Positions 2,446 to 59,371 of a stretch of 64,000 bases of DNA are shown here, one piece after another. The notes beneath the pieces were generated by a model, which saw nothing but the letters and a program-made list of their open reading frames with translations, had not been told where the DNA came from and searched no databases. The stretch comes from Patescibacteria group bacterium (GTDB lineage: Bacteria; Patescibacteriota; Patescibacteriia; UBA9570): the NCBI GenBank assembly GCA_041665365.1, contig JBAYIY010000003.1:68260-132259 (forward strand), read 5' to 3'. Position 1 is the first letter of the stretch; each line of letters begins with the position of its first letter. Position numbers and translations under genes: made by a program.

Positions 2446-3585
2446 GTGAAAAAAATTCTTTTTCTATTTCCACATTTTTTTCTACCGGGTGGTGCCGCTA
2501 ACTCAACAGTTCGATTTGCTCGCTATCTACAACACCACGGATATATTGTGGAAATTTTATGTGCCGGAGCCACGAGCGATTTTCTACAACAAAATAACGA
2601 TCTCAAATTCAAACTTGTTAAAATACCACCCAGTAATACATTACAGTACTGGGCACTATTATTAATCTGGCAATTTAAAATCAATCTGGTATTATCTTGT
2701 TATAAAGACTATATTTTTTTCCCGCAAGTGTTACCGTCAAATTGGTGGGCTTGGTTATACAAACTAAACCATAAAAATCAAAAAATTATTTGGAATTGTA
2801 ATGAACCAAGTGCCTTTATTCATTCAGTAGATTGGATTAATGCTATTAAGAATCCACTGATGCGGTTGGGAGCAAAGCTATTTCGTCCCATTTTAAAATT
2901 AATTGATGTCTATTTAGAAAAACAAAATGATCTGGTATTTGGTAATAGCCAGTTTGCCGCAGCTAGTTATAAGACATGTTATGGTAAAACTACTCAAGGC
3001 GTAATATATCCACCATCATATATCAAAGATGTTGCGCCAGCCTTAACGAAAGACAATTATTTTTTTACTGTCAGTCGGTTAACAAAATTTAAAAATGTTG
3101 ATTTACTCATCAATTCATTTACTAAAATAGCTCAGAGATATCCAAATTATAATCTCATCATAGCTGGCCAGGGTGAATATTTAAACACTTTAAAAAAGTT
3201 AACGCAGAATAATAAAATCGAAGATCGAGTGACCTTTTTAGGGTCAGTATCAGACGATCAATTAGCTAATTTATATATTAAGGCTAGAGCAACAGTGTTT
3301 TGTTCAAAAAATGAACCATTTGGGCTTGTTCCAATCGAATCAATGATGTATGGTACACCAGTGGTTGCTTATAATAACGGTGGTCCAAAGGAAACGATTA
3401 TTAATGGTAAAACCGGTTTTTTATTTGAGGCTGATGATATGTTAACCGGCTTCCTAGAAAGAATTATTAAGCTTGATGATAAATCTTATCAGGTTATGCA
3501 ACACGCTGCTCAGTTACAGGCTAAAAAGTTTGATATCTCGATTTCTGGTGTTCAATTAGAAAAAATGATTATTGCAGTAGAATGA
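2446..3585 (+). CDS. Family 4 (GT1-fold) glycosyltransferase
   Basis: The C-terminal motif EPFGLVPIESMMYGTPVVAYNNGGPKETI is typical of GT4 retaining transferases. Confidence 0.8.
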   Translation: MKKILFLFPHFFLPGGAANSTVRFARYLQHHGYIVEILCAGATSDFLQQNNDLKFKLVKIPPSNTLQYWALLLIWQFKINLVLSCYKDYIFFPQVLPSNWWAWLYKLNHKNQKIIWNCNEPSAFIHSVDWINAIKNPLMRLGAKLFRPILKLIDVYLEKQNDLVFGNSQFAAASYKTCYGKTTQGVIYPPSYIKDVAPALTKDNYFFTVSRLTKFKNVDLLINSFTKIAQRYPNYNLIIAGQGEYLNTLKKLTQNNKIEDRVTFLGSVSDDQLANLYIKARATVFCSKNEPFGLVPIESMMYGTPVVAYNNGGPKETIINGKTGFLFEADDMLTGFLERIIKLDDKSYQVMQHAAQLQAKKFDISISGVQLEKMIIAVE

Positions 3586-3598
3586 ATATATACCTATT

Positions 3599-38900: not shown

Positions 38901-41900
38901 TTGTCCCATTCAAAGTCAGTGTAACTCCGCTGTGTGTCAGCATGACCGTGGTGATGGTAAGAATGTCGCTGGTATCAACATTAATAGTACCGGCAGCTGT
39001 ACAATTATCTGTTTGCATAGTCCAGGTGCCACTACCATCGCTGCCAATAAAGGTCACACTACTAAATGAAGAGGTTCCGCACTCTATCGTGTTATCAGTA
39101 TCGGCCGCATCAAAAATGACAGTTCCACTGGAATGCGTAAACGTCGCATTGTTATCCCAGTTACCACCTACATTAAATGTTCCAGTACCAGATGCAATCA
39201 GAGTGGCAGCGGCTGAAATAGTGATATTACCATTCACATCAAAGGTTGGATCATTTGTGTCTAAATTAAAAATACCGGCCGTGGCACTATCACCGACCAC
39301 CAAATTACCCAATACTGAAAACGTTCCACCACCGTTGGCATGAAAAGTGACCGCGCCGCTCGGCCGTACGCTCAAATTCCAATAGGATTCAAGTTGAATA
39401 TCCGTGGCTGCGTTACCAATGAAATCCACAGTTGAGTTTGTTCCCTCGTTTAAGGTGCCGGAGACAATAAATGGACGAGAAGCACCTTGCCCAGAACCAG
39501 TCAGGGTAAGGGTATAGCCAGATGATCCTAGTGCTAATGTGTCACCCGTTGTGACATCAACCTTCGTTGCTCGAGCATTCCCTGTTAATGTCACTGTTGA
39601 TGGTGCACCATTGATGGAAACTAAGCCAATATCTTGCCCAGATGAAGCATCAGACCAATTAGCTGCTCCGCCGTCAAATGTCCAGGTAGCGGTTCCGTTA
39701 TCGGCTTTAGTGACCAAGCCACTGGCGCCGATAGTTACGTTACCGGTCGTAGTTACATTCGGGTCGAGCACGGCCAAATCCAAGTCACCGTCCGTGATGG
39801 TAAAAGTACCGTTCACATCCAGATTGCCATCAACGTTCAGATCATCTGTTGCACCAGCACTGCCGGTGTTATTAAGTGTAATATCTTGGTAGGTCTCAGC
39901 GCCCGTCGTAAATGTTTGAGCGGCCGACGTGCTGTTGAATGTAATAATACCGCCGGTGGTAGCAGTGTATGCCGCGGAACCCGCCACAATAAAATCTCCG
40001 GACACGGTGATGCTGTTGTTATTTGCAGTCCAATTGCCAACGCCAGTCGTCGCAGTATCGCCGATTTCGATGTGAGTGGAAGTCACATCACCGCCGCCAG
40101 CAGAAGCCGGTTGGAAGGTATCGCCATCATCAATGTATAATTCTTCCTGACTAGATTGTGCTTCCGCATCCACCGTTAGATCGTTATCGACACTGACATC
40201 CCAAAACACATCGTCATCGCCGATAGCAACTGAATTGTCATAGACACCAACATCGCCATTGGTGATAGTTTGACCATCGACACTACCAATAGTGAGGTGT
40301 TCCTTAAACAAAGGGATGTTCGTCATGTCACCACTGCCATCGTATTTCGCCACTGCCCCGGATCGATCGGACATACTAGCAGCCGCATCAACCCATACCG
40401 TTACGATTTGACCGGTGGTAACTGTGACACCAGTGACTTCCCATGTACCAGCAATCACAGTATCTTCTTGCGCTTGCACACTGCCATCCACTGCTACTTT
40501 AATTGTACCGATATCTGTACAGTCAGTAGATTGGTCGAACGCATCACATGTTCCTGAAACGGTGACGGTGGGTGCTACTAATGTAGTAGCTCCTGAAATT
40601 TCTCGATCGTAAGCTGGGCCGATGCCTCCAGTGGATACTGCTACATCCGTTGATGGGGTGGTAATTTCTAATTCAACGGTTTCACCAGCCGAGGCCCCAG
40701 ATGTGATATCTAGCACTACATAGACACACATGGTAGAGGTCGGTGTGATTGCGACAGAACCAGTGAAGGTTGATGTGCCATCAGCACTACTGAACCCATC
40801 GGTATCAGTAGAGCCGTATTGCGTTTCTGTACCGGCAAATGATTCACTCGAACAATTATAAGGAGCGCTGGTGTCCGGCTCGTAATAGAGTTTGATGTTA
40901 TCCAAATCAGCTTGAGCATCCACCGTGCCATACTCAGTAATCATGATACTGGTAATGTTGGCAGTGGCAAGTGACTCGTTGATGGAGAAGGCTCCACCCA
41001 TGGAATTACCCGTTGTGTTAATAGTGACAGAAGAGGTTTGTGTACCTAACACGTTGACATTGGCGGTGTTAGAAGCCCGAAAGGCAAAGTCATATGGCTT
41101 GGTCGGCAATGATGTGGTAAGCGTCGCACCGGTAGACAAATCTGCTTCCCAAGCTCCCATGGTGGCTGTTTGGGTTAACCAAGTGCCGGTGGAAGCACCA
41201 TTCCACAGTTGGGATTCAGGTACTAAATCCAGTGTAAGGTCTTCCGCATTGAGCATGATTTTGTCTGATGATGGATCTGGAGAAAGATCAATACCCGACG
41301 GAACGTCAGCCCAAACCCCCAAACCTGAACACGGCCCATTCGAATCTTCTGCCGCTGATAAGTTGGTGACTTGTTCAGTGGTACCGGCTCCGCCTTCAGT
41401 TAACAAACAGAGTGAAGCATCGTCTATGGTCTGGAATTGCCCGGCCGACACATCAAATACCATCCAACGTAGTGCTGTTTCAGATGTAGTCCCGTCACGC
41501 CAAGCAAACAAGGCTCGATCCCCACCACCTTGCTCCCATTCCACATCTATCCCCTGGGCAAAGCCATTACTGTTAATGTCAACGTCCATGGTGGTAGGCT
41601 GTGTAATGGTTGTCCAATCTGAACCGTTCCACATGTCCACATTCATGTCAGCCGTATTGGTAGAGGCAGTGTCCTGCACAATCACGGCAATATAGTCGTT
41701 ATTTGGGCTGTCCGCGATCCGTAACCACTGCACAGCAGCCCCAGGATCTGTCATGCCAGTAGTGTCCGACCAACCGCTGCCCACGGTGTAGGTTGAAGCG
41801 TCAATAAACGGCGCTGCAGTGACATCGCCATACACAATCATACCCTCACCAGAGGAACCTTCCCAAGCAACGTCAAAATCTTGGCGTGTGGAGAGGCCAT

Positions 41901-44178: not shown

Positions 44179-44179
44179 C

Positions 44180-45523
44180 TTATTTAGTATGTGTTTTGGT
44201 ATTTTTATGATTGTGCAGATGTACCGACCGTCTTTTATGAATGAACCCAAAGATCCAGAGATACACCAACACAATGATGAGTAGTATGAACAAAACAATC
44301 GCTAACCAATAATATGTAATAAAAATTATTCCAAGATAAAAGCCAACCCCTGGCCATTGTTCAACAATTGTTATAGTTGTTTTGGCGTCAGTAACATTTC
44401 CAGCTTTGTCTAAAGCCAAAACAGTAATGGTATGCTCACCATACGATTGTTCATCTAAGGTTATATTAGTCAGTTTGGCTGGTGTAATCTTGGCAAATAT
44501 TACTTGGCTATCAACTAGCACTGTATAAAAATCTATACCTGAAGTCTCATCTGCTGTGTAAAAATTAAAAGTTGGTCGACGATTTTTTGTAATAGAATCC
44601 GCATTTAAATTAATTGTAAATACTTTTGGAGGAGTATTATCTATCATTATCGTATAGTGGCGAGTTTCGCCCCAACTGGTGTCATTGCCTGATTTCACAT
44701 GAAAATACCAAATGCCATCCTGGCTGTTTGGCAACTCGGCAACGTTGTTGGTTCCTTCCACAGTATCATCTGGAACAGTATCCAGTTTATCATCATAGCT
44801 CCAACTAAAACGGGTCGCCCCAACAATTGGATCGAAACTAATTGTACCGTCATCATTGTTATACCACTGCTTTTGCTCAGATTGTATGCCATTAATAGTA
44901 ATTGGCATGGGTGATGGCAAGGTCTTCTCAGCTGTCGTTTTTTCCTCTTCTGTTAGTGTTTCTTCTGGCTTAATATATTTGGCCTTGTTTTCAACTGATA
45001 CTGGCGGTGGTAATGTTTGTGCTGCGATATTGTAAGTGGCTCCAGCAGCCCCGCCATATATATTCGTTCCTAACCCATCATTGGCCAAAATTTTTCCACC
45101 AACAACACTGAGTACAGCTGATCCATTAGCCCTGGCTTTAAAGGTGATACTAATAATAGTGCCATGCCCGCTATAACCAGGTGAGGCAACTCCACCGGAA
45201 AAGGAAATGGTGCTACTGGAATAAGATGGTTCTGACGTCCAGAGGGTAAAAATACCACCCTTACTAACACTAACAACTTCTAATTTGTCACCCGGATAAG
45301 TAACGGTAGCTTGAGCTGCATTTATTGCCACACCACCTGTATTGATAGCCACGGCAACAGTTTTGGTCTCGCCAATTTTCATGGTTCCCGTGGCAGGTGA
45401 TAATCCCAATGTGGCCATTGCCCAGGCGGATGAAGGAATTAACCAAACTAGTAACCCAACGATCAAGGTGAAAGTGAAAACAGTACTGTTTTTACTAAAC
45501 GTCATATTAAGAGATACTAACAA
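44180..45523 (-). CDS. Cohesin-domain cell-surface protein with a C-terminal transmembrane anchor
   Basis: It has a signal peptide. The cohesin-like block reads AAQATVTYPGDKLEVVSVSKGG...GTIISITFKARANGSAVL. The C-terminal hydrophobic anchor is LAIVLFILLIIVLVYLWIF, followed by a basic tail. Confidence 0.7.
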   Translation of the reverse strand: MLVSLNMTFSKNSTVFTFTLIVGLLVWLIPSSAWAMATLGLSPATGTMKIGETKTVAVAINTGGVAINAAQATVTYPGDKLEVVSVSKGGIFTLWTSEPSYSSSTISFSGGVASPGYSGHGTIISITFKARANGSAVLSVVGGKILANDGLGTNIYGGAAGATYNIAAQTLPPPVSVENKAKYIKPEETLTEEEKTTAEKTLPSPMPITINGIQSEQKQWYNNDDGTISFDPIVGATRFSWSYDDKLDTVPDDTVEGTNNVAELPNSQDGIWYFHVKSGNDTSWGETRHYTIMIDNTPPKVFTINLNADSITKNRRPTFNFYTADETSGIDFYTVLVDSQVIFAKITPAKLTNITLDEQSYGEHTITVLALDKAGNVTDAKTTITIVEQWPGVGFYLGIIFITYYWLAIVLFILLIIVLVYLWIFGFIHKRRSVHLHNHKNTKTHTK

Positions 45524-45615
45524 AATTTTTTATGATTGGCTACAGGTTTATGTGAGGGGTTGATCTCGATTGTATTGTGTGCTATAATAATCCCATTATA
45601 ATAATAATAAAAATT

Positions 45616-46677
45616 ATGAAAAGAAGAATGCAAATATTTGGAAGTGTGATTGTTCTGGTGATGGTATTAGGCTTTTTATTGCCATTACGTCAGGTTCAAG
45701 CCGCTTCATTGACCAATACAAAAGACGTAATGAGTACTGAAACTGCTACAGCCAATGCAAACCACACCATCTCATTTATCTCACCGTCCGCCATTACAAA
45801 TGGATCAACCATTACATTGACATTCCCGGCCGGGTTCGATTTAACTGGTATTATTGAAGATGATATTGACATTGCTGGTTCAACGGAAGGGGAATTAACG
45901 ACCGCGGCTGACTGTACGGGTTCAGAAAAAGCCGGTATTGCTAGCCCTGGTGCCCAAGTTATTACTATTAATTTGTGTGCTGCTGACGGAGGAGATTTTA
46001 CTGGCTCAGAAACTGTTACAATTGAGATCGGTACGAACGCAGCCTCTTCTGGTACAGGAGCTAACCGAATTGATAACCCAGGAGTAGGTGCTTATAAGAT
46101 AGCCATTGGAGGCACTATGACAGACGCTGGGTCTTACGCTGTATCTATTATTGCCGATGATAGTGTTAATATCACGTCTACTGTTAATCCTACACTTACC
46201 TTTGCGATCAGTGATACCGCAATTGGTTTTGGCACATTGACCACGGCTAACGCCAGGTTTGCTACAGGGGATTTAGTTGGTGCTGATACTACTCCAACCA
46301 TTGCTCATACCTTTAGCATTGCTACTAATGCCACTACTGGTTACTCAATCACTTATAATGGAACCACACTGACCAATGCTGATGCTGACACAATTGATGT
46401 TGCCACTATTGCTAGTGATGATGACGGCACACCAAATTCGGAACAATTTGCTTTTGGTGTTACCACTAACGGAGATGGTACTATTGTCCCTGCTTATGAT
46501 GCCAATAGTTCAGCTGAATATAAGTTCATTGCTGGAGCAACTACTCCATTCTTTAGCGAGCTTGGTGCCACTGCTACTGAAACTATTAGTGCATACTACA
46601 TTGCCAATATTGCCGCCACCACTGAGGCCGGTACCTACACTACCGACATTACTTACATTGCAACAGGAACTTTTTAA
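45616..46677 (+). CDS. Secreted protein sharing the ~165-aa C-terminal domain of the giant protein (possible surface-structure subunit)
   Basis: It has a signal peptide after the ATG at 45616. The C-terminus TFAISDTAIGFGTLTTANARFATGDLVGADTTPT...TYTTDITYIATGTF is about 75% identical to the giant protein's C-terminus. Confidence 0.55.
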   Translation: MKRRMQIFGSVIVLVMVLGFLLPLRQVQAASLTNTKDVMSTETATANANHTISFISPSAITNGSTITLTFPAGFDLTGIIEDDIDIAGSTEGELTTAADCTGSEKAGIASPGAQVITINLCAADGGDFTGSETVTIEIGTNAASSGTGANRIDNPGVGAYKIAIGGTMTDAGSYAVSIIADDSVNITSTVNPTLTFAISDTAIGFGTLTTANARFATGDLVGADTTPTIAHTFSIATNATTGYSITYNGTTLTNADADTIDVATIASDDDGTPNSEQFAFGVTTNGDGTIVPAYDANSSAEYKFIAGATTPFFSELGATATETISAYYIANIAATTEAGTYTTDITYIATGTF

Positions 46678-46703
46678 AACTTTTTTCTTAGAAATTTGAA
46701 ACG

Positions 46704-47714
46704 ATGAAAAAATCATTGTTAAAGAGATACAATGTGATAATGATGGTCGTTTTAGTTGGGTTTGGCTTTTTATTCTGCACATCACCGGCTCAGGCACTCA
46801 CTATCATTCCACCCTCCATGGAAATCGATCTCACTCCAGGTGTACCTTATAATGATCAGATTAAACTGTTTAATGAAACAGACTATCCTGTTACACTTTA
46901 TACTGAAATAACGAACTTTACGGCATCCGATGACGGAACAAAACCACAGTATGAATTTGGATTGGAATTAACTGATGTCGCAACTTGGATCCAAGTTGAA
47001 CCAGGTCCCTTTGTGCTGCAACCAAAAGAACGAAGAAGTGTTCCGTTTATTATTAACCCACCAGCAGAGGCTGATCCAGGTGGGCATTATGCGATTATAT
47101 TTTTCTCTAATAACCCACCCCAAATCAAAGAACCAGGTAAGGTCAAAATTGGTTCTAAATTAGGTACACTCATCTTATCTAATGTAGCCGGAGACATTAC
47201 AGAGGCAGGCAGCATTGATAGTTTTTTAACCGTCGATAAGTCTGTTTATTTTAATTATTTGCCAGTGCAACTACAACTGACATTCAATAATACTGGTAAT
47301 GTACACATTCGGCCTTCTGGTACTATTACCATCCAAAATATTTTTGGAAAAACCGTTAAAACACTCGATATCAATACGGTTGGTTCAGCTACTTTGCCTA
47401 AGACTGCCAGAAGTTACCAAACGGTTTGGGAAAAAGCACCAGTTTTGCATACAACGAATAATTGGTTAGGACAATTTTGGGAGGAGTTAAAAAATGAAAA
47501 AGATAATTTTGCTTTTGGAAAATATACTGCCTCCGCTTCACTAGTGGCGGGACAAGATAATCAAATTACAAAACAAGCAGTGGTTAGTTTTTGGGTAATT
47601 CCCTGGAGGCTTCTGATAATATTTTGTGTTGGTGCTATAATTATTTTGTTAGGTTTAATTAGAATGATTAAAGGCTACAATCGTTGGATCATTCGACATG
47701 GACAGAGTAAATAA
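46704..47714 (+). CDS. Secreted protein with a C-terminal transmembrane anchor, function unknown
   Basis: It has an N-terminal signal peptide and a beta-rich ectodomain. The C-terminal helix is WRLLIIFCVGAIIILLGLIRMI, followed by basic residues. Confidence 0.45.
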   Translation: MKKSLLKRYNVIMMVVLVGFGFLFCTSPAQALTIIPPSMEIDLTPGVPYNDQIKLFNETDYPVTLYTEITNFTASDDGTKPQYEFGLELTDVATWIQVEPGPFVLQPKERRSVPFIINPPAEADPGGHYAIIFFSNNPPQIKEPGKVKIGSKLGTLILSNVAGDITEAGSIDSFLTVDKSVYFNYLPVQLQLTFNNTGNVHIRPSGTITIQNIFGKTVKTLDINTVGSATLPKTARSYQTVWEKAPVLHTTNNWLGQFWEELKNEKDNFAFGKYTASASLVAGQDNQITKQAVVSFWVIPWRLLIIFCVGAIIILLGLIRMIKGYNRWIIRHGQSK

Positions 47715-48603
47715 ATTTTCATTTGCAGTGAAGGAAGTGACTAAACAACAAATTCGTTTTCTTCTGACTGTATTATGTGTTAGTTCAAGTTTTTTTATTT
47801 CGCAGCCACTTTTAACTCAGGCCATTGGTGTTAGTTTGACTGCTACAGTGACTGGATCCTCACCAGAAGAGCCAATTACAACCGTCATTATTGAGGGGTT
47901 TGCTTATCCAACAACTAATGTTTCTATCCGAGAAAATGGAAAAATAATAGCGATTACTCCAGCTGACTCCCAAGGATGGTTCACTGTGACCATTAACAAC
48001 ATTAATCCAGGTATTTATACTTTCTCTGTCCACGGGGAAGACATAAAAGGACGAAAAGGCCCAGATATAAATGTTACTGTGGCTATAAGCAAAGGAGTGA
48101 CCATTACCATCTCTGGTATTTATTTAGGGCCAACCATTGCAATTACTCGTAATAATATTTTTTTAGATGAAATAACTACAATACTTGGCACTAGTGTTTC
48201 AGATAGTCGCGTCAACATATTTATTAAGGCAGAAAATAATCAGCAGACAATTTTTAATAAACAGGCTAATCATAACGGGTTTTACTCAAAATCCATCTTA
48301 GGTAGTACTGTAGGCGAGGGTAGATACACAACTTATAGTCGTGTCGTTGCGTCAGACGGAACAATTTCTGATCCTAGTAAAACACTTGTCTTTACTGTTT
48401 CGAATGAAGCAAACACCTCAACTTGCGCCAACTCTTTAGATAGTGATATTAATTGTGATGGGGAAGTAGATTTGATAGATTTTAGCGTCTTGTTGTATTG
48501 GTGGAATCAGGCTAATCCGAGTAATGCCCGGGCCGATATCAATGGCAATGGGTTAGTTGATGTGGTGGATTTTAGTATCATGTTATATTATTGGACCGGA
48601 TGA
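47698..48603 (+). CDS. Secreted Ig-like protein with a C-terminal type-I dockerin domain
   Basis: It has a signal peptide. The C-terminus DSDINCDGEVDLIDFSVLLYWW...DINGNGLVDVVDFSIMLYYW is the canonical duplicated calcium-binding dockerin repeat. Confidence 0.7.
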   Translation: MDRVNKFSFAVKEVTKQQIRFLLTVLCVSSSFFISQPLLTQAIGVSLTATVTGSSPEEPITTVIIEGFAYPTTNVSIRENGKIIAITPADSQGWFTVTINNINPGIYTFSVHGEDIKGRKGPDINVTVAISKGVTITISGIYLGPTIAITRNNIFLDEITTILGTSVSDSRVNIFIKAENNQQTIFNKQANHNGFYSKSILGSTVGEGRYTTYSRVVASDGTISDPSKTLVFTVSNEANTSTCANSLDSDINCDGEVDLIDFSVLLYWWNQANPSNARADINGNGLVDVVDFSIMLYYWTG

Positions 48604-48613
48604 ACTCATACCT

Positions 48614-49753
48614 ATGAAACGTTTTTTCGTGAATAGTTTTATTTATACTCTAAGTTGTAGCTTGTTACTTTTGTTAAATACTACGGCGGCCTCCGCAGCT
48701 AGCTTGTACTTTGAACCGAACACGGCTGTTTGGTCAGTAGGGTCAAACCAAATGATTAATCTTCATATTAGTAGTGATGGGGAGGTAGTGAACTTGGTGC
48801 AAGCGACTATTCAATATCCGCCAGATGTTGTGGAAGTTATTGCCGTGTATCACGGTGGATCATCGTTGACATTATGGCCAGAGGAACCAAGCATCAATGC
48901 TGCTGCTGGCAGCATCACTTTTGCAGCTGGTATACCGAATGGTAGTTTGATCGATACCGGGCAAGTATTAACTCTGGAAGTTCGTCCTAAACAGGCTGGT
49001 ACTGTGCAATTTAGCTTTAATCCAAATCAAACGGCTGTGTACTTGAATGATGGTCTGGCTACGCAGACTACTGTGTCATTCAAAGAGCCGGTTTACGATA
49101 TCATATCAGCCGCTCCTGTTAGTTTGATAGTGACTTCAGCAACGCATCCAGATGAAAATAAATGGTATCAACTTAATGAGTTTAGTGCACAGTGGGAGAA
49201 AAAACCCGATGCGTTATATAGCTTTCATGTCACATCTGATTTAGAACAACTACCTGATGACATTGCAGATGATACCCCACAAGTTGTGACCGGGGAATAT
49301 ACTATCTCCAATTTGTCTGATGGAGTGCATTATTTTATGATTAAAGAATGGTTATCCAATGAAGCTGGCTGGGCAGAACCAGTGATTCGAAAAATTATGG
49401 TGGACAGTACACCACCGACTTCATTTATCCCGCTCGTAAGTCAAACAGAACATGAATTTAACGGTCAGCCATTTCTTGTTTTCGATACCAGTGATTCCGT
49501 TTCTGGTATTGATCATTATGAAATAGTTAAAGGGGGAACAACCACTATTATAACGAAAGGACCTTACCAGTTGGAACAAAAAGATATTACGCAACCAATA
49601 CTGATTCGAGCAGTAGATGCAGCAAACAATAGTACGACCGTATATACTGGAGAGAACGCCACTAATATTAGGCGCAATTATTTTTGGCCAATAACGGCAT
49701 TGGTGGCATTTTTGGCGTTACTACTAGTATATTTGAAAACTCGATTATCCTAA
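48614..49753 (+). CDS. Cohesin-domain cell-surface protein with a C-terminal transmembrane anchor (paralog of 44180-45523)
   Basis: The cohesin-like block is VQATIQYPPDVVEVIAVYHGG...GQVLTLEVRPKQAGTVQF. The conserved middle domain contains SGIDHYEIV. The C-terminal anchor is WPITALVAFLALLLVYL. The ATG at 48614 is preferred. Confidence 0.7.
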   Translation: MKRFFVNSFIYTLSCSLLLLLNTTAASAASLYFEPNTAVWSVGSNQMINLHISSDGEVVNLVQATIQYPPDVVEVIAVYHGGSSLTLWPEEPSINAAAGSITFAAGIPNGSLIDTGQVLTLEVRPKQAGTVQFSFNPNQTAVYLNDGLATQTTVSFKEPVYDIISAAPVSLIVTSATHPDENKWYQLNEFSAQWEKKPDALYSFHVTSDLEQLPDDIADDTPQVVTGEYTISNLSDGVHYFMIKEWLSNEAGWAEPVIRKIMVDSTPPTSFIPLVSQTEHEFNGQPFLVFDTSDSVSGIDHYEIVKGGTTTIITKGPYQLEQKDITQPILIRAVDAANNSTTVYTGENATNIRRNYFWPITALVAFLALLLVYLKTRLS

Positions 49754-49904: not shown

Positions 49905-52900
49905 ATGGTTTGGCAACGTCATAACATGAATTTCAGCGTTTTTCCAGTATTTGTTAGTGTTGTTGTTTTTGGATTGTTATCAGCGCACTCCGCGTTAGCA
50001 GCCACCTACACCGTCAGTAAAACTGCGGATACCAATGATGGCACTTGTGATGCAGATTGTTCGTTACGTGAAGCGATTACAACAGCCAATGGTGCTTCCG
50101 GCAATAGCATTGAGTTTAATATCAATGGCGGCACGGATGCTGGCTGTACCGGTGCCGGTGGGGTTTGTACGATTACTCCTGCCAGTGCCTTACCAGATAT
50201 TACCGGCGCCTCAATGACAATCAATGGGTATACTCAAACTGGAGCAGTCGCTAATACTACAGCCAATGGCAGTGTTGTGACTGGTATCAATGGATTAAAT
50301 ACAACTTTACGAATCGTGCTGGATGGTACCTCAGCCGGTGGAGCAGCTAATGGACTAAAAATCAATGGGGTAGCTAATGTAGTAATTAAGGGCTTAGACA
50401 TAATGCGCTTTGGTAGCAATGGTGTGTTGGCTACGGGAGCAGGAGCGACTAACTTGAAAGTGCAGGGTTGTTTTATTGGAACAGATGTTACCGGAACACT
50501 GGATCAGGGAAATTCTGGCAATGGAGTAGCGGCTGTCACTGGCGCTACAGTTATCGTGGGTACCGATGGTGATGGTGTGACTGACGTAGCGGAACGTAAC
50601 TTGATCTCTGGCAATAGTACTTATGGCATTAACATTGCCGGTGGCACAGGTAGTAAAGTTTCAGCGAATATAATTGGCCTAGCTAGTGATGCCAGCACTG
50701 ATCTGGGTAACTTAGGTAACGGTGTTTATGCAACAGTCTCATCAACCATCATCGGCACCAATGGTGATGGCACCAGCGATACGATTGAAGGCAATATTGT
50801 GTCAGGGAATGATCAAAGTGGGATTAACATTAATGGTGGTGGTTCAGATACTATTACTGGTAATATTGTCGGTCTGAATGGTGTTGGCACCACTACTGTC
50901 CGCAATACTTTGAATGGTATCTTGTTGTTTGGCACCGGTTCGAATCGAGTGGGCACCAATGGCGATGGTGTCAGTGATACCTATGAAAGAAATGTTTCAT
51001 CCGGTCATTCTGGTAATTTTTATTATGGCTTAGAGGTGATTAGTCCAAGTAATACTGTGGCGGGAAATTATTTTGGCACGGATATTACCGGTACAGTCCT
51101 GCATGGAAATTTACGTAATGTACTTGTATCCGGCAATAATAATATTATTGGCACAAACGGCGATGGTAATGGAGATACCGTAGAAGGCAATGTCATAGCT
51201 GGTGGTACTGGCGCCGATGGTCTGTATATCAGTACCGTGGCAACTATCACAGTTGCGGGCAATAAGATTGGTACAGATTATTCAGGCACAGCCGCGCTGG
51301 GCAATACCCATGGTATTCGGATTGATGGAACAGATTCAGGCATTGTAATTGGTACCAATGCCGATGGTGTGTCCGATAGTGCCGAGCGCAACATTATTTC
51401 CGGTAATCAGGTGGGTATTTTCATGGAACAAGGGTCTTCCAATACTGTGATTGCCGGTAATTATATTGGTTTGAATACTGCTGGTACGGGCACAGTTGGT
51501 GGCTCATATGGTGGTAATCGCTATGGTATTAGTATTGGTCGAATATGGCCTGGGGCGGGTACATCCAGTGACAATCGTATCGGTACGAATGGCGATGGGG
51601 TGAATGATGCCGCTGAGGCTAATGTTATTTCTGGTAATTATACTTATGGAGTGGTCATGGCCACCGGCAATAGTAATACGATCGCTGGCAACTATATTGG
51701 CACCGGTCCAGATGGAGTGACAGAGTTTGCTAATGGTGAAGCAGGCATTGCGTGGTACGATGGTGCTCCTGACGTTTCCAATAGTTCAAGTAACACTATT
51801 GGTGGTGATACTATAGCTGAAGGCAATGTTATTGCGTCTAACGGTTCTTATGGTATTGAACTAAGCGGGGTATCCAGCGATGGCAATTTAATTAGCCATA
51901 ATAAGATGTTTTCTAATCTACTTGAAGGTATTTTTCTTCCCGGTGATGGCTCAAATAATGATATGAGTGCCCCAGTCATTACTAGTTGGGCACCAAGTGG
52001 ATCAGATTTAACTATTTCCGGAACCGCTCCGGCCAGTGCGGTAGTTGAATTATTTGATGCCTCCACCGATGAAGGAGAAACCTATCTTAATGCCGCCACT
52101 GCGAATGGGTCTGGTAATTGGTCAACTACGATCAGTGCCCCCTATACAGCGGCTAATAATACTTTGGTCGCAACCGCCCGAGATGGCAGCAATGATACAT
52201 CCATGTTTAGTGCTGTGTATACTATCACGGATATAGCGCCGACTACACCAACCGATCTGCAAACCTCCAGTCTGTTTGGGGGTTGTGGATCAGATAGTAC
52301 TCCAGAGTTTTCTTTTACGTTAACAGATAGTGATGTCGTAGATACGGTTGGTTATCACATTCAGATAGATAATGATGCAGATTTTTCATCACCCGTGGTT
52401 GATTACAACTCAGGGTTAGCTGCTCAAGGCACAGCCTCATTTGTAGTTGGCCAAGCCGTTGGCTCTGGTGTATATACCACTGGTTCTGCTGGACAAACGT
52501 TAACAGACGGAAGTTATTCTATGCGGGTGCAAACCATTGATTTTCTTAGTCAAACATCAGCTTATGTCACACAAACATTTGGAGTTGATAATGGTGTCAC
52601 AGTTAGTACACCCGCATCAGCCACCACATCCGAATTAGGTGATACAACTACTTTCACAGTGGTGTTAGCTTGTCTGCCACAAAATGACGTGACTATACCT
52701 GTAGTCAGTTCAGATACCACTGAAGGTAGTGTTTCCACGGCGGCACTCACTTTTACTACTGGAAACTGGAATGTGGCACAAACTATTACAGTGACAGGAG
52801 TAGATGATTCTAGTTCAGATGGTAACATTAATTATTCAATCCAATTAGGTCCAACCACTTCGAGTGATACGGCTTATAGTGGGGTCACCATAGCTGATGT

Positions 52901-55673
52901 GTCACTGACTAATATTGATGAAGATTTACCACCACAGTTTTCTGGTACCATTCCGGATCAAACTTGGGATGAAGATACTACTTTAACTAATGTCTTTAAT
53001 TTGGATGATTATTTTACTGATCCCACCACAGAGGGGCTTAGTTACAGTGTGGCCGGGGCTGACAATATTACAGTGACAATTGGGAGTGATGGACAGGTAA
53101 CGCTTGTTCCTGATGCGGATTGGCATGGTACGGATACAATGAAATTTGTGGCGCAAAATTCTATTGGGCAAACTAAGTCTAATCAGGTAACTCTGACAGT
53201 AGAAAGTATTAATGATGCACCAGAAGCGCCCACCATTTTTTCGCCGTGTTGTCAGGATGTGACAGCTTCATTGTCGCCGACTATTTCCTGGCAAGCAGCC
53301 TCTGATCCGGATCATACTACAAGTGAATTGTCGTATGAGATACGGTTCGGTTCGGATGCTGATCCGCAAAATAATTATCATTTTACAGCTAGTACTTCTG
53401 CCGGTAGTAAATCTGTAAAAATTTCTCCAGATTTAACTGATGAGAAGACCTATTACTATGTGGTACGAACCATTGATCCACTGGATGCTAAGTCAAATTG
53501 GTCTGAGATACAAAGCTTTTCCACCAATGTCAGTTATAGTCCTGACCTACAGTTAGCCAAAACGGTAGAATTACCGGCCGAACAGATTGCTTGGTTTGGC
53601 ATCAACTTTGCTGCCTTATTCTTGATCCAACCAGCTCAGGCCAGTGGGTTTGCGATTATTAGTCCAGACCAAATCGCTGACCAATCGTTCATGGTGTTAA
53701 TCGGATCACTGACGATATTACTCTCCGCCGCGCTGGTTATATTAGGATTGGCTCGTCATCCGAAAAATTTCGTGACAGCCTTACTACACGATGTGCCAGT
53801 GGCATTTAAGCGGATTCATAAATCGGGTCATGGCACTATCACCACTTCGTATACGAGTTTCAGACGTCGGTTAGTAACCGCTCGTAGTATTATCTATCTG
53901 GCAGCGCTTGTGTTTGTTCCTGCCCTCGTCATTAATGGATTACATGCCGAAGTGAGTAACTGGTTACAGCGGGTACAAACGGTCAGTACCACTATACAAC
54001 CAGGTGAAACTATGACTATATCACTCAGTTATAGCAATACAGGTGATGGTGACGCTACCAGTGTGGTGTTGTCTGATACGATCCCTGGCGAAACAACTTT
54101 GCTCAGCAGTTCGATACCGGCCACACAACAGGCCGACCAGATCAGTTTTGACCTGGGCACCATCCCGGTAGGTGGCACAGGCACAGTCAGCTATCAGTTG
54201 GGTGTAGCCGAACCTTATGATCATGATTCAATAGTACTTGATCCGGCAGAATTAATCGCTAACGAAATAACGGCCTCGGTGTTGTCGGATAGTGTGGTAG
54301 TCCCTGTAGTATCCGGCACTATCTCTGGCCAAGTAACTGATGGCGCTGGTGTTGGAATCACCAACGTGTTGATCACATTACAATGGGGCGATCAACAAAC
54401 CTTCTCAACACTCACCGATGCTAATGGGTATTATGTATTGAGTGGCTTAGCGAGTGGGGATTATGTAGTGACGGCCTACACACAACAAAAAACGACTAGC
54501 TTGACCCGTGGTGGTAGTGCCACTGTTAATTTCAGTTTTGTCAGTAGTAGCATCCGTCAAGACAACACGAATACAAACACTGACACCACTACTGACACCA
54601 CTACTGACACCACGACGGATGTCAAAACTCCAAAACCTATCAAGTTAACGCCAGAGCAGCAAGAGTTGGTGGATAATTTTGTGGTCACAGATTTAAATAA
54701 TGAAGTATTACCAGAGAATCAAGCGGTGATATATCTGACCGATGATCCAAGCTCAGTTCCAACGGGTGCATTAGCCTTGCCGACCGCAACCGAAACATTA
54801 ACCTTTCGTGGCACCACTGTACCGAATAGTACCATTACGATCCAAATTTGTTATACCATTTTAACGACTACTAGTGATGAAACCGGCGCCTGGATTATGG
54901 TAGTGCCGCGCGACTTATTACTCCAAGGTGATAATGTGATTACCGCCAGTGTCACACAAGGTAATGTGGAAGTAGACCAAATTGTGGTAGCACACGTCAA
55001 TGTAGATAATGCACCTACGGCTCAGTCGACCAATTATTGGATAAATTTTATTGCCATCGCTTTATTACTACAGTTGAATATAGCCGCCTGGATAGTGTTA
55101 CGCGTTCGGCACAGTAGTACGACGCTGTCTAGCAAATTGATTTTACTTCACCTGGTGACCGTGGTGGTAGTGGTCATCTTTTTGTTTGTGCCGGTGCCGC
55201 AAAGTCGGCAGGTGCAAGCGCGTGGGCATTTACGCCAAACCAATATCATGGCTAGATTGGTGAATAACCAACCATTGACTGATCAGTATATCACTTTTCA
55301 GGACACGCAAGCCTTAGAATTAGTGGGTTCAGCTTCAGCCGACCAACAGTATAGTGTCTCGATTTGTCCCAATCAACCATTCCGTTATGTGACCACCAAT
55401 CATGCTGGTCAGTGGAGTTTGATTCTACCGGTGAGTGTACTGCCCAACTTCGATGTGACAGTAGCGATGCGATCAGCGACCGATACGACTCAAACTGAAG
55501 AGCAGTTAGTGGATCTCAATGTGCAAGAAAAATATGATACGGTGACGCTATGGCGTTGGATAGTATTAGCCTTGATTGCCAGTGGGGCGTTTATTACAGT
55601 GGGGAATTGGTTCATCGTGTATCGGACAGTGCACAAACCAAAAAGTAAAGAAGTAAAGGAGAATATGGCTTAG
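49905..55673 (+). CDS. Giant (1,922 aa) parallel-beta-helix repeat surface protein with FN3/Ig-like, DUF11-like and CarboxypepD_reg-like domains and several predicted transmembrane segments
   Basis: The signal peptide is followed by more than 15 repeats of the N-x-I-S-G-N beta-helix type (IGTNGDG...NxISGN). Other domains present include DAPEAP (cadherin/FN3-like), GTISGQVTDGAGVGITN...YYVLSGL (CarboxypepD_reg) and a (TDTT)n repeat. Hydrophobic helices occur around aa 1235-1300 and 1700-1900. An alternative start is at 49926. Confidence 0.7.
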   Translation: MVWQRHNMNFSVFPVFVSVVVFGLLSAHSALAATYTVSKTADTNDGTCDADCSLREAITTANGASGNSIEFNINGGTDAGCTGAGGVCTITPASALPDITGASMTINGYTQTGAVANTTANGSVVTGINGLNTTLRIVLDGTSAGGAANGLKINGVANVVIKGLDIMRFGSNGVLATGAGATNLKVQGCFIGTDVTGTLDQGNSGNGVAAVTGATVIVGTDGDGVTDVAERNLISGNSTYGINIAGGTGSKVSANIIGLASDASTDLGNLGNGVYATVSSTIIGTNGDGTSDTIEGNIVSGNDQSGININGGGSDTITGNIVGLNGVGTTTVRNTLNGILLFGTGSNRVGTNGDGVSDTYERNVSSGHSGNFYYGLEVISPSNTVAGNYFGTDITGTVLHGNLRNVLVSGNNNIIGTNGDGNGDTVEGNVIAGGTGADGLYISTVATITVAGNKIGTDYSGTAALGNTHGIRIDGTDSGIVIGTNADGVSDSAERNIISGNQVGIFMEQGSSNTVIAGNYIGLNTAGTGTVGGSYGGNRYGISIGRIWPGAGTSSDNRIGTNGDGVNDAAEANVISGNYTYGVVMATGNSNTIAGNYIGTGPDGVTEFANGEAGIAWYDGAPDVSNSSSNTIGGDTIAEGNVIASNGSYGIELSGVSSDGNLISHNKMFSNLLEGIFLPGDGSNNDMSAPVITSWAPSGSDLTISGTAPASAVVELFDASTDEGETYLNAATANGSGNWSTTISAPYTAANNTLVATARDGSNDTSMFSAVYTITDIAPTTPTDLQTSSLFGGCGSDSTPEFSFTLTDSDVVDTVGYHIQIDNDADFSSPVVDYNSGLAAQGTASFVVGQAVGSGVYTTGSAGQTLTDGSYSMRVQTIDFLSQTSAYVTQTFGVDNGVTVSTPASATTSELGDTTTFTVVLACLPQNDVTIPVVSSDTTEGSVSTAALTFTTGNWNVAQTITVTGVDDSSSDGNINYSIQLGPTTSSDTAYSGVTIADVSLTNIDEDLPPQFSGTIPDQTWDEDTTLTNVFNLDDYFTDPTTEGLSYSVAGADNITVTIGSDGQVTLVPDADWHGTDTMKFVAQNSIGQTKSNQVTLTVESINDAPEAPTIFSPCCQDVTASLSPTISWQAASDPDHTTSELSYEIRFGSDADPQNNYHFTASTSAGSKSVKISPDLTDEKTYYYVVRTIDPLDAKSNWSEIQSFSTNVSYSPDLQLAKTVELPAEQIAWFGINFAALFLIQPAQASGFAIISPDQIADQSFMVLIGSLTILLSAALVILGLARHPKNFVTALLHDVPVAFKRIHKSGHGTITTSYTSFRRRLVTARSIIYLAALVFVPALVINGLHAEVSNWLQRVQTVSTTIQPGETMTISLSYSNTGDGDATSVVLSDTIPGETTLLSSSIPATQQADQISFDLGTIPVGGTGTVSYQLGVAEPYDHDSIVLDPAELIANEITASVLSDSVVVPVVSGTISGQVTDGAGVGITNVLITLQWGDQQTFSTLTDANGYYVLSGLASGDYVVTAYTQQKTTSLTRGGSATVNFSFVSSSIRQDNTNTNTDTTTDTTTDTTTDVKTPKPIKLTPEQQELVDNFVVTDLNNEVLPENQAVIYLTDDPSSVPTGALALPTATETLTFRGTTVPNSTITIQICYTILTTTSDETGAWIMVVPRDLLLQGDNVITASVTQGNVEVDQIVVAHVNVDNAPTAQSTNYWINFIAIALLLQLNIAAWIVLRVRHSSTTLSSKLILLHLVTVVVVVIFLFVPVPQSRQVQARGHLRQTNIMARLVNNQPLTDQYITFQDTQALELVGSASADQQYSVSICPNQPFRYVTTNHAGQWSLILPVSVLPNFDVTVAMRSATDTTQTEEQLVDLNVQEKYDTVTLWRWIVLALIASGAFITVGNWFIVYRTVHKPKSKEVKENMA

Positions 55674-55811: not shown

Positions 55812-55913
55812 TTCTGGCCTGCCAGACTGCACTAAGTTTCGTCTGGCCTGCCAGACTGCACTAAGTTTCGTCTGGCCTGCCAGACTGCACTAAGTTTCGT
55901 CTGGCCTGCCAAA
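55812..55913. repeat. 29-bp tandem repeat (tctggcctgccagactgcactaagtttcg), about 3.5 copies
   Basis: Three perfect copies (55812-55840, 55841-55869, 55870-55898) are followed by a degenerate partial copy. It lies about 30 nt from the 3' end of tRNA-Ser. Confidence 0.85.
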
Positions 55914-55944: not shown

Positions 55945-56033
55945 TGGCGGAGAGAGAGGGATTCGAACCCTCGATACCTTGCGGTATACACGCTTTCCAA
56001 GCGTGCGCACTAGACCAACTATGCGATCTCTCC
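55945..56033 (-). tRNA. tRNA-Ser (anticodon GGA), class II with a long variable arm; 3' CCA is encoded
   Basis: On the minus strand the sequence reads GGAGAGA..TCTCTCC-G-CCA for the acceptor stem. The anticodon stem CACGC/GCGTG carries the loop TTGGAAA. The variable arm is long. The T-arm reads GAGGG-TTCGAAT-CCCTC. Confidence 0.8.
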
Positions 56034-57247: not shown

Positions 57248-57940
57248 GTGTTCAATAAGTTCTTTCATGTGTTTTGTCCGGTTTTTTTCGTGATTTTTGG
57301 CCTGGTTGGGTGTGACAAGCACACCACCCCGGGCGGAGGGGGCACCGCTACTGCACTCTGGTACGAGTTTTGTGGAGGGGAGGTCGACGCGGACTGTGAC
57401 GGGTATCTCGAACCCGCCGACTGCGACGATGCTGACTCGGCCGTGAGCCCGTACGCTGTCGAGGTCTGCGACGAGATCGACAACGACTGCAACGGGGAGG
57501 TCGACGAAGACCTTCCAATGTTGGAGTGGTATCCCGACGACGATGGCGACAGCTACGGAGAAGATGGGTCAGAACCCATCCTCGACTGTCGCGAACCACG
57601 CGGGCGGTATACCTGGCGCGACGGCGACTGCGATGATAGTAACATCTCAGTCAATCCGGCCGTGCCCGAGCACTGCAACAGCATCGACGACAACTGCGAC
57701 GGCATCGTCGACATCGATGCCTGGGATACCCATGAGTGGTATCCCGACGTCGATGGTGACGGCTACGGCGACGAACTCGCCGAACCCGTCTCAGCCTGTT
57801 ACCAGCCGCCCGGCTACAGCGACTGGCCGGCCGACTGTGACGACACCAACGCGGAGATCTATCCGCGGGTGGCGGAGGTCTGCAATAACGTCGATGATGA
57901 CTGCGACGGGTGGGTCGACGATGGGTTGACCTGCGAGTAG
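57248..57940 (+). CDS. Lipoprotein with four MopE-like putative metal-binding repeats (DCDD...P.A.E.CD.IDNDCDG.VDE); GC-rich, probably foreign
   Basis: A signal peptide with lipobox LVGC is followed by repeats such as ADCDDADSAVSPYAVEVCDEIDNDCNGEVDED and GDCDDSNISVNPAVPEHCNSIDDNCDGIVDID. Codon usage is GC3-rich and local GC is about 60-65%. Confidence 0.65.
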   Translation: MFNKFFHVFCPVFFVIFGLVGCDKHTTPGGGGTATALWYEFCGGEVDADCDGYLEPADCDDADSAVSPYAVEVCDEIDNDCNGEVDEDLPMLEWYPDDDGDSYGEDGSEPILDCREPRGRYTWRDGDCDDSNISVNPAVPEHCNSIDDNCDGIVDIDAWDTHEWYPDVDGDGYGDELAEPVSACYQPPGYSDWPADCDDTNAEIYPRVAEVCNNVDDDCDGWVDDGLTCE

Positions 57941-57989: not shown

Positions 57990-58601
57990 TCATCTCGGGC
58001 TTTTTCTGTTTTTTCCAGCCAAACGCCAATGGTTAACCACTAGGATGGTTGCCATAATGGCCGAGCCAACGGTGTTATACGTGATATCTAATAAAGTATT
58101 AGTGTAATCACCCACTTGTTTTCCGATATTAAAAATCAACACCGCAATAAACTCAATTAATTCATTCACAGCACCTAAACCCATGCCAACTAGTACTAAC
58201 AATAAAATAAAATAACCGCGTCTCCGTTCAAAGGTGATATTAAGCACGGGAAAAAGCAAGGCATGAGCCAGCATCACCATAATGGCACTACCTACCATAT
58301 GAACAAAATTATCATACCGAAACAAACCTGGTATTAAATAGAAATCATATAATCTAATATCACCTAAATAAGCATTGCTGCCGAGCAAATGCAGTAACCC
58401 AAGCAGAGATAATGAGGTGAGTAGAATCGGGTAAAAATGCAGTCGGCGATTAATATAAACAATCAATCCAATCGACAAAACAATTAGTGCCGTATCATAA
58501 ATAAATTCAACATTGCCTTTGAGCAGAGAGTGCAACGAAAAGATCGAGACATAAACGAAGGTGAAATAGACAATGAATTTTTCAAATTGGTTTTGTGTCA
58601 T
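57990..58601 (-). CDS. Hypothetical polytopic membrane protein
   Basis: The 203-aa product has about six transmembrane helices. It is translationally coupled (ATGA overlap) with the upstream gene. Confidence 0.35.
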   Translation of the reverse strand: MTQNQFEKFIVYFTFVYVSIFSLHSLLKGNVEFIYDTALIVLSIGLIVYINRRLHFYPILLTSLSLLGLLHLLGSNAYLGDIRLYDFYLIPGLFRYDNFVHMVGSAIMVMLAHALLFPVLNITFERRRGYFILLLVLVGMGLGAVNELIEFIAVLIFNIGKQVGDYTNTLLDITYNTVGSAIMATILVVNHWRLAGKNRKSPR

Positions 58602-59371
58602 ATAGGTTTAACAATAATAATGGCTTTTTGACCAGTGGGAACATTGCCATCATTCCAATCGTGAATGGCATCATAAAACTTATCATAGTCATAGGTATAG
58701 TCGGCACCCTTTCTGGTACCGGGGTCATTGGTAATAACATAATCAGGTGTGTAACCTTTAATTACTAACATGTGGTAAAGCGGTCCGGGGGCGGTAAAAT
58801 TTGGATTACCCAATTCACGTCCGGCGGCGGGCACCAGTACTGGGTAACCTTGGCTGATAGCTTGTTTAATATCATCCCACGTAAAATCATAGATCACCTC
58901 ACTTGTCAGATCATCATAAATGTAATTTAACACTTCAGAAGTTTGGGCAGCAGTCAGACTGGGGCCATAACCAAAATCCGTTTCTTCAGTATCGATAATA
59001 TCCAAGATGGCTTGTTCGGCATCGTTTTTATCTACAATACCTCGATTCTCTAAAAACCTAGCCGCCATTAACATAGACGCTTCTTCACAGGCTTCTTCAT
59101 GAGTGGCATCCCAGTTCGTGGATGGTGCTTGAGATGTAAAAGGGATCGATAAATTAAATTCATCGGGTGGTGTGATTGGAACAACCGGTTGTTCCGGTAG
59201 AGACGTTGCATGCAACGTCTCTACCGGAACCGGAATTTCTTCACGGGTTACCGCCACCGGCACAACCGGTTTTGGTATTAACCAATCTTTAATGGTGACG
59301 CGTTTCAGCCATACCACCATACCAAGACTAGCTAGTAATAAAACAATAATAATGATTATAATCTTTTTCAT
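58598..59371 (-). CDS. Membrane-anchored C39-like peptidase-domain protein
   Basis: An N-terminal anchor is followed by a Pro-rich linker, then the domain IPFTSQAPSTNWDATHEEACEEASMLMAARFL (Q...NW...CE.AS pattern of Peptidase_C39_2). The start overlaps murJ. Confidence 0.5.
   Translation of the reverse strand: MKKIIIIIIVLLLASLGMVVWLKRVTIKDWLIPKPVVPVAVTREEIPVPVETLHATSLPEQPVVPITPPDEFNLSIPFTSQAPSTNWDATHEEACEEASMLMAARFLENRGIVDKNDAEQAILDIIDTEETDFGYGPSLTAAQTSEVLNYIYDDLTSEVIYDFTWDDIKQAISQGYPVLVPAAGRELGNPNFTAPGPLYHMLVIKGYTPDYVITNDPGTRKGADYTYDYDKFYDAIHDWNDGNVPTGQKAIIIVKPI

Follow-up and report, generated by a model that had tools for sequence, protein, structure and literature searches.

The window analysed here is a stretch of 64,000 nucleotides from a Patescibacteria group bacterium (contig JBAYIY010000003.1, assembly GCA_041665365.1), and it carries a giant gene whose product of 1,922 amino acids (aa) is predicted to be an adhesin-like surface protein that is exported through Sec and retained in the cytoplasmic membrane by a multi-pass anchor of conserved, modular build. 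We give this reading a probability of roughly 60%. Patescibacteria (the candidate phyla radiation, CPR) are host-attached bacteria with one membrane and a small proteome. If the reading is correct, the gene defines a conserved modular mode of anchoring very large surface proteins, in which transmembrane (TM) hairpins stand between extracellular domains and a unit made of an immunoglobulin-like (Ig) domain and a TM helix has been duplicated. The cassette would also be a recognisable marker for finding host-interaction proteins in CPR genomes.

According to this model, the signal peptide would be removed and an acidic stretch of about 1,230 residues would be translocated, comprising a CSLREA-type beta-helix and a stalk of Ig-, cadherin- and FN3-like domains. 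The first helix (TM1) would halt the transfer and leave a conserved basic loop of 44 aa in the cytoplasm. TM2 would restart export and deliver a 365-aa ectodomain that consists of a DUF11 domain, a transthyretin-like domain, a T/D linker and an Ig domain. TM3 would halt the transfer again and be followed by a basic loop of 12 aa, TM4 would re-export a second Ig domain, and with TM5 and its basic tail the protein would terminate inside the cell. The chain would cross the membrane five times, its helices forming two hairpins and a terminal anchor, and the two membrane-proximal ectodomains would be tethered at both ends. Both the domain types and the episymbiotic lifestyle of the phylum point to an adhesive role, probably attachment to a host or substrate surface. 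The additional helices would provide load-bearing, multi-point anchoring, since several helices with basic cytoplasmic loops should withstand extraction better than one, and they possibly serve helix-helix packing or oligomerisation. A preliminary description of this DNA had proposed a giant adhesin-like protein of beta-helix and Ig domains, and the open reading frame (ORF) and its domain matches bear this out.

The reading frame and its relatives

The giant ORF is a single, genuine gene that belongs to a Patescibacteria (CPR) bacterium. Exactly the same protein is encoded on a 180-kb MEGAHIT contig in ENA (L001) and on a Logan contig (L002), the DNA of both is 100% identical to the window across the ORF, and the three assemblies were made by different assemblers. 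None of the overlapping ORFs in other frames exceeds 88 aa. The neighbouring proteins DnaG, sigma-70, PEP synthase and transketolase are catalogued under 'Patescibacteria group bacterium'.

In principle, an assembly join or a missed frameshift could have fused two or three adjacent genes, each encoding a signal peptide, an ectodomain and a TM anchor. At the junctions between the modules, the sequence does look as if a C-terminal anchor tail ran into an N-terminal signal peptide, and a relative in one Kerfeldbacteria metagenome-assembled genome (MAG) is annotated as three partial coding sequences (CDSs). However, the ORF is unchanged among the three assemblies, and its single-frame architecture is shared by two orthologues of about 63-65% identity (L003 and P0133) and by at least ten remoter relatives. 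The orthologue on contig L003, found in a genome-collection scan, is about 65% identical over the C-terminal region and is truncated on the 5' side, where the contig ends; its five helices and both short loops all lie in a single frame. When the codons of the window and L003 were compared, the proportion of synonymous differences (pS) was 0.53-0.88 per sub-region, except in the 19-codon TM2 (0.36). The proportion of nonsynonymous differences (pN) was 0.12-0.41 and stayed below pS in all sub-regions, each helix and loop included (for loop 1, pN 0.215 vs pS 0.64). Because pN is lower than pS everywhere, and well below it over both junctions, while synonymous sites are saturated, the frame through the junctions is under purifying selection. 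The inter-module junctions showed neither a stop-codon relic nor a start codon nor a Shine-Dalgarno/ribosome-binding signal, and a gene fusion through a lost stop codon or a frameshift was rejected for want of such a relic. An assembly or frameshift artefact is effectively excluded.

The fragmented relative belongs to the P0163 cluster (Ca. Kerfeldbacteria, HBY73473-75). One public MAG has three partial CDSs of 679, 108 and 823 aa, and a 1,606-aa version of identical length occurs elsewhere; the three-CDS form is probably a product of fragmentation, through frameshifts or through annotation.

At least 14 collinear relatives were found by a full HMMER scan of 1.84 billion protein representatives with aa 1215-1922. 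P0133 is a full-length orthologue (1,859 aa, 63% identical). Nine relatives (P0163, P0167, P0170, P0189, P0194, P0202, P0209, P0213 and P0258) possess hairpin 2 together with the duplicated Ig domain and the terminal anchor, and seven of these nine have hairpin 1 too, which gives the five-TM layout. Four others (P0044, P0276, P0267 and P0211) end after TM3, and P0083 has hairpin 1. The cassette has the collinear order Big_9, FN3-like domain, TM1, basic loop of about 45 aa, TM2, DUF11, CarboxypepD_reg, low-complexity linker, Ig and TM3, continued in the longer forms by a loop, TM4, Ig and TM5. The sequences, the TM maps and the order of the Pfam domains agree on this arrangement, and in six relatives (P0133, P0163, P0167, P0170, P0202 and P0209) a single HMMER alignment spans the cassette. 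The cassette is built of modules: P0202, P0209 and P0213 carry an N-terminal passenger of another kind, and P0258 lacks the middle block, so that its beta-helix is joined straight to the Ig-TM3-TM4-Ig-TM5 portion. The members that bear a taxon name are Patescibacteria or Ca. Kerfeldbacteria, and three others are labelled only 'bacterium'. Three paralogues come from a single MAG.

Other searches were less productive. When the word-indexed search was run with the C-terminal 708 aa, every match was a CarboxypepD_reg repeat protein, and with an 11-sequence family alignment it gave nothing, although the collection contains members of the family, even one that is 63% identical. Words from low-complexity and TM segments probably saturated the candidate list, and the family came to light only in the full HMMER scan. 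Two scans of metagenome contigs found no relatives.

Membrane segments and predicted topology

Hydropathy was assessed in 19-aa windows, where a mean Kyte-Doolittle value of at least 2.0 was counted as a peak and 1.6 served as the lower threshold. Six peaks scoring 2.0-3.05 were found, at aa 15 (the signal peptide), 1262, 1328, 1713, 1746 and 1886. In 5,000 composition-preserving shuffles, six peaks in the whole protein were reached once and five peaks in aa 1215-1922 were never reached. Hydropathy, shuffles, the orthologue and the family all indicate five genuine and conserved TM helices, as the preliminary description had anticipated in reporting several TM segments, three of them (TM3, TM4 and TM5) after the linker. 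Among the hydrophobic helices that it placed ahead of the linker, TM1 and TM2 are real, but 'FAALFLIQPAQASGF' is no membrane span. This segment stays below the 1.6 threshold, is too short to cross the membrane and corresponds to a conserved, predicted extracellular motif that lies 15-25 residues ahead of TM1 across the family. The motif may form a helix at the membrane interface, or it may mark a site at which the protein is processed or sorted.

The orientation of the helices was predicted from charge counts in 15 proteins, the window protein and 14 relatives, under the well-established positive-inside rule. The long segments are strongly acidic throughout; the first 1,228 residues of the window protein contain 31 K/R vs 124 D/E. 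Loop 1 has 5-11 K/R vs 0-3 D/E (2 vs 0 in the atypical 7-aa loop of P0163), and in the window protein the 47-residue gap between the TM1 and TM2 Kyte-Doolittle windows has 9 K/R vs 1 D/E. Loop 2 is present in 11 proteins and basic in every one of them. Of the 15 C-terminal tails, 11 are basic, two near neutral and two acidic. In all 15 proteins this pattern places every long segment outside. Short loops rich in K/R, set against acidic long segments, indicate an N-out/C-in topology with the large domains all on the outer side of the membrane. The predicted topology, which puts every folded domain outside the cell and leaves only some 75 residues in the cytoplasm, is strongly over-determined. 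In P0194, hairpin 1 is absent and the FN3-like domain is directly continuous with DUF11, which fits a position of both flanks in one compartment.

These results modify the view that large folded domains sit on both sides of the TM segments. They do so along the sequence, but the charge pattern indicates that they do not do so across the membrane. The suggestion that the protein could span the envelope or form a conduit finds no support in the charge pattern of the 15 proteins or in the absence of hairpin 1 from P0194, and Patescibacteria have no outer membrane. Giant metagenomic ORFs with several TM segments need be neither mis-assemblies nor proteins with domains on both sides of the membrane.

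The C-terminal part was modelled with AlphaFold2 (aa 1618-1922, 11 family sequences; mean predicted local distance difference test score (pLDDT) 78, predicted template modelling score (pTM) 0.62). The model contains two beta-sandwiches and three helices, in the order beta-sandwich, helix, helix, beta-sandwich, helix, at positions that match the hydropathy prediction; a structural check of the domains had been proposed beforehand. A larger model (aa 1217-1922, 2-sequence alignment) had a mean pLDDT of 43.5 and served for secondary structure only. In Foldseek searches the beta-sandwiches resembled Ig domains of the giant adhesins MpIBP, SiiE and Bap and of an S-layer protein. The two Ig domains also resemble each other together with their helices: hhalign of Ig-A plus TM3 against Ig-B plus TM5 gave a probability of 98.5% (E = 2e-15). 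By this profile-profile comparison the last Ig and TM unit is an internal duplication, and the five-TM form thus arose from the three-TM form by duplication of the Ig domain and its anchor, with TM4 as the connector.

Between TM2 and TM3, the DUF11 domain, the CarboxypepD_reg domain and the (TDTT)n linker had been recognised from the sequence, and the Pfam matches and a (TDTT)3 run confirm them. The run is encoded by a 12-nt (nucleotide) DNA repeat at 54579-54613. In relatives the corresponding position is occupied by acidic or N/T-rich linkers of variable length. The features of the gene are collected in Table 1.

Table 1. Features of the giant gene and its product (aa, residues of the protein; positions, nucleotides of the window; ↓, candidate cleavage site; out/in orientations are predicted)
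Feature	Residues (aa)	Positions	Strand	Basis and remarks
Giant gene	1,922 aa	49905-55673	+	Single ORF, ATG start
Sec-type signal peptide (...SAHSALA↓AT)	1-32	49905..50000	+	Hydrophobic peak aa 15-33; putative cleavage site by AxA rule
CSLREA N-terminal domain	35-62	50007..50090	+	NCBIfam TIGR04214 (CSLREA_Nterm), 32.2 bits vs cut-off 25
Right-handed parallel beta-helix, super-repeat ~66 aa	about 63-700	50091..52004	+	NosD match, motif periodicity
Acidic stalk	701-1208	52005..53528	+	Pfam/NCBIfam matches; domain order kept in relatives
Conserved pre-TM1 motif	1225-1247	53577..53645	+	Family alignment; hydrophobic stretch, then P-A-x-A (P-A-x-A/G in relatives)
TM1, stop-transfer, out to in	1262-1283	53688..53753	+	Kyte-Doolittle 2.65; conserved in orthologue and family
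Cytoplasmic loop 1 (44 aa)	1284-1327	53754..53885	+	Charge counts; conserved motif
TM2, re-insertion helix, signal-peptide-like (n-h-c, then LHA↓E)	1328-1346	53886..53942	+	Kyte-Doolittle 2.21
Ectodomain 2a: DUF11 and CarboxypepD_reg/transthyretin-like domain	1359-1436 and 1472-1544	53979..54536	+	Pfam 27.8 and 40.8 bits, both above cut-offs
T/D/N-rich low-complexity linker		54549..54620	+	(TDTT)3 at aa 1559-1570
Ig-like beta-sandwich A	1631-1700	54795..55004	+	AlphaFold2, most 10-residue blocks with mean pLDDT 80-92; Foldseek
TM3, out to in	1712-1732	55038..55100	+	Kyte-Doolittle 2.13; helix in model
Cytoplasmic loop 2 (RVRHSSTTLSSK), 12 aa	1733-1744	55101..55136	+	3 K/R vs 0 D/E
TM4, in to out	1745-1765	55137..55199	+	Kyte-Doolittle 3.05; helix in model
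Ectodomain 3, Ig-like beta-sandwich B	1767-1876	55203..55532	+	AlphaFold2 pLDDT 84-94; duplicate of domain A
TM5, terminal stop-transfer anchor	1885-1905	55557..55619	+	Kyte-Doolittle 2.02; helix in model
Basic cytoplasmic tail (YRTVHKPKSKEVKENMA) and stop codon		55620..55673	+	5 K/R vs 2 D/E

Possible processing and function of the multi-pass part

Several observations weigh against a single, purely anchoring polypeptide. TM2 has an n-h-c layout and a short hydrophobic core, like a cleavable signal peptide, and its sequence leaves room for a mature product that may not be one polypeptide. The loop-1 motif, the recurrent Asn in TM3 and the pre-TM1 motif suggest a function beyond passive anchoring. 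A binding or enzymatic role of the beta-helix is putative, and a sequence search of the PDB found no homologue of the giant protein. The genomic context of the relatives differs among the window, L003 and the further contig L004 and gives no functional clue; a conserved operon context was accordingly rejected.

It is possible, though rather unlikely, that the protein is a Sec-processed polyprotein conserved in a Patescibacteria family, in which TM2, and perhaps TM4, are internal signal peptides cut by signal peptidase I on the outer face. The products would be two or three separately anchored surface proteins in a fixed 1:1(:1) stoichiometry: the beta-helix stalk on the TM1-TM2 hairpin, the DUF11/CarboxypepD_reg/Ig portion on TM3(-TM4) and the small Ig domain on TM5. 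TM2 has much of what such processing calls for. A basic n-region (FRRRLVTAR) stands before it, its hydrophobic run extends without a break over 11 residues (IIYLAALVFV-P-ALVI counting Pro), and the helix breakers N-G and then L-H-A↓E follow. The site is kept in orthologues (LHS↓Q, LHA↓R), and a small-x-small motif occurs soon after TM2 in most members. The mean core length of TM2 in the family (15.2) is near that of the N-terminal signal peptides (16.7), vs 22.2 for TM1, 19.0 for TM4 and 18.5 for TM5. Stop-transfer and signal-like helices alternate along the chain, and the giant protein resembles, placed end to end, three of the units of signal peptide, ectodomain and C-terminal TM helix that its neighbours represent.

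The motifs themselves are weak evidence, however, because by our estimate chance alone would place a (-3,-1) motif within 10 residues in about 80% of cases in such A/S/T-rich segments, and the (-3,-1) rule was for this reason rejected as evidence of cleavage. In P0189 the best candidate site is followed by Pro at +1. VQA↓R after TM4 is kept in close orthologues, but the TM4 core of about 20 residues has no consistent cleavage motif across the family and resembles a true TM helix. Independent products would leave the retention of the fusion and of the loop-1 motif over deep divergence unexplained, and likewise the loss of the hairpin in P0194. A limited literature search found no description of such processing in bacteria. 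A bacterial polyprotein is known in FbcH of Bradyrhizobium, the precursor of cytochromes b and c1. The structural polyprotein of flaviviruses likewise alternates stop-transfer with signal-like helices, and successive ectodomains are exported from one polypeptide; cleavage by signal peptidase is known for both precursors, whereas in the window protein it is hypothetical. If cleavage did occur, one ORF would deliver several anchored surface proteins, and a flavivirus-like topogenesis would be conserved in a Patescibacteria protein family.

The same helices could be imagined as a functional membrane device, either an outside-in mechanosensor that acts through the conserved cytoplasmic loop or an oligomeric pore or conduit at the interface between episymbiont and host. 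We consider this improbable. It would account for the loop-1 pattern (R-HPK..LL..P...F..I....S[FY]..F[KR].[KR]L in the family alignment), which is kept among members less than 35% identical, and for TM3, which at about 76% identity between the orthologues exceeds many segments of the ectodomains. An Asn (Asp in P0133) lies within the TM3 span in nearly all members, three-TM forms included, although it forms a single aligned column for only 6 of 11 sequences. Asn and Asp residues within membrane spans typically drive helix-helix association, and the recurrent residue hints at such association or at oligomerisation. On the other hand, the cytoplasmic portion amounts to only about 75 residues, and Pfam and NCBIfam recognised no signalling, ATPase or transport domain. 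Members have either 3 or 5 helices and hairpin 1 may be missing, which is hard to square with a fixed channel. Apart from that residue, the helices are plainly hydrophobic and show no amphipathic pore-lining pattern, and the organism has no second membrane to bridge. A multi-pass anchor, with the TM3 residue possibly in helix packing, remains the reading that we prefer.

The N-terminal part, known systems and genomic surroundings

The preliminary description assigned the N-terminal 1,200 aa or so to a beta-helix. The repeats are present but are limited to about aa 60-700, and aa 700-1215 consist of Ig-, cadherin- and FN3-like modules. The N-termini of relatives show a pattern that matches the putative signal peptide cleavage site (A↓ATYTV). 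Within the beta-helix, six GTNGDG-type motifs are spaced about 66 aa apart (aa 219-560), and there are five N.ISGN motifs. Pfam matches NosD (PF05048) at aa 331-534 with 24.9 bits (cut-off 23.6), and the match to Beta_helix (PF13229) is weak (12.8, cut-off 25.9). The stalk begins with a beta-rich region that has no domain match and continues with a Big_9/cadherin-like domain (aa 1019-1098) and an FN3-like Ig_Rha78A_N domain (aa 1123-1208).

Both the TIGR04214 domain and the beta-helix repeats assign the protein to the CSLREA beta-helix class. CSLREA/NosD-like surface proteins are widespread in Planctomycetota, Patescibacteria and others; they are like the N-terminal 700 aa of the window protein and share with it the CSLREA motif and the GTNGDG...N.ISGN super-repeat. 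The protein homologue search returned thousands of beta-helix homologues at 30-50% identity. Among the 120 beta-helix homologues listed, only P0044 and P0083 have an internal hairpin, and 57% is the largest share of the query that any alignment reaches.

The anchor differs from those described for other large surface proteins. The components PamC, PamD and PamR of the CPR Pam pilus have a single C-terminal TM anchor, which has been ascribed to the lack of an outer membrane (bioRxiv 10.64898/2026.03.03.709456). They come from the same group of organisms and rely on Sec export and direct anchoring in the sole membrane, a solution also used by three neighbours of the giant gene, but they have one anchor helix where the window protein has five, with hairpins and with ectodomains tethered at both ends. 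The Omnitrophota 'Archaeovorins' exceed 30,000 aa and contain SecA-DEAD domains and many predicted TM helices, the predictions of which were described as ambiguous (bioRxiv 10.1101/2023.11.21.568195). Those giants are similar in that they are mostly extracellular, of attachment or carbohydrate type, interrupted by TM segments and found in ultra-small episymbiotic or predatory bacteria. They belong to another phylum, however, and the helices of the window protein are few, conserved in position and topologically coherent; with 1,922 aa and no SecA domain in Pfam, the protein falls outside the Omnitrophota class. Adhesin-like proteins of Methanobrevibacter and Methanosphaera combine a right-handed beta-helix, Ig-like repeats and a TM anchor in a cell that has no outer membrane (PMC11532034). 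These archaeal proteins have a single TM helix at one or both termini and no internal hairpins, and the likeness is one of architecture, with no sequence relationship shown.

The Ig-like stalks of the giant adhesins SiiE, MpIBP/LapA-type and Bap (RTX/BIg adhesins) are the best structural match to both membrane-proximal domains, and an adhesive role is presumably shared. However, those adhesins leave the cell by type I secretion or have their anchor in the cell wall or the outer membrane, and they have no TM helices, whereas the window protein has neither RTX nor LPXTG motifs. Pfam gave no HemolysinCabind or autotransporter match in the giant protein. No LP.TG, NP.TG or similar motif for sortase anchoring was found anywhere in it, and exosortase and archaeosortase signals were not found either (no NCBIfam sorting-signal match, no PEP or PGF motif). 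In PmoB/AmoB, subunits of particulate methane and ammonia monooxygenases, two beta-sandwiches on the outer side are joined by a two-helix TM hairpin, as predicted here; with Foldseek ranks of 22 and 34 and probabilities of 0.25-0.41 the matches are insignificant, and the resemblance is an analogy of topology between proteins of unrelated biology. The architecture had been called unusual, and indeed no description of the patescibacterial hairpin cassette was found in the searchable literature on giant multi-TM adhesins of CPR bacteria, CSLREA proteins or polyproteins with internal signal peptides.

The gene lies in a local cluster devoted to the cell surface, with cohesin- and dockerin-bearing proteins, and three neighbouring genes encode a signal peptide, an ectodomain, a C-terminal TM helix and a basic tail. 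The cohesin-domain and dockerin-domain proteins lie just upstream (44180-45523, minus strand; 47698-48603 and 48557-49753, plus strand), and two of the three have a C-terminal TM anchor. Their domains suggest a cohesin-dockerin surface assembly in a patescibacterium. At 45577-47714, two successive genes whose products have no Pfam match encode a secreted T/A-rich beta protein of 366 aa and, after it, a protein of 336 aa that has both a signal peptide and a C-terminal TM helix; by analogy with the CPR Pam pilus, the pair could be a pilin and a membrane-anchored chaperone. In a second giant ORF (35902-44298, minus strand; 2,798 aa), the only hydrophobic segment is at the N-terminus, and Pfam shows no significant domain.

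Contig L003 carries the MAG label 'uncultured Gammaproteobacteria' and looks like a mis-binned contig. The region that adjoins the orthologue (positions 3157-5461 of that contig) includes a gene whose 559-aa product contains DUF11-like repeats and a TTEED linker and has an LPSTG motif ahead of a TM helix and a basic tail; next come a small sortase-like gene and then hisG and hisD.

Downstream of the giant gene, between it and tRNA-Ser (55945-56033, minus strand), a perfect 29-nt tandem repeat (TCTGGCCTGCCAGACTGCACTAAGTTTCG) with an internal palindrome is present in 3.4 copies (55813-55911). L001 differs from the window only by two fewer units of this intergenic repeat. Further along lie a secreted protein (57248-57940, plus strand), in which three putative metal-binding motifs of the MopE type were recognised (E = 2.5e-30), and, next to MurJ, a membrane-anchored Peptidase_C39_2 protein (58598-59371, minus strand).

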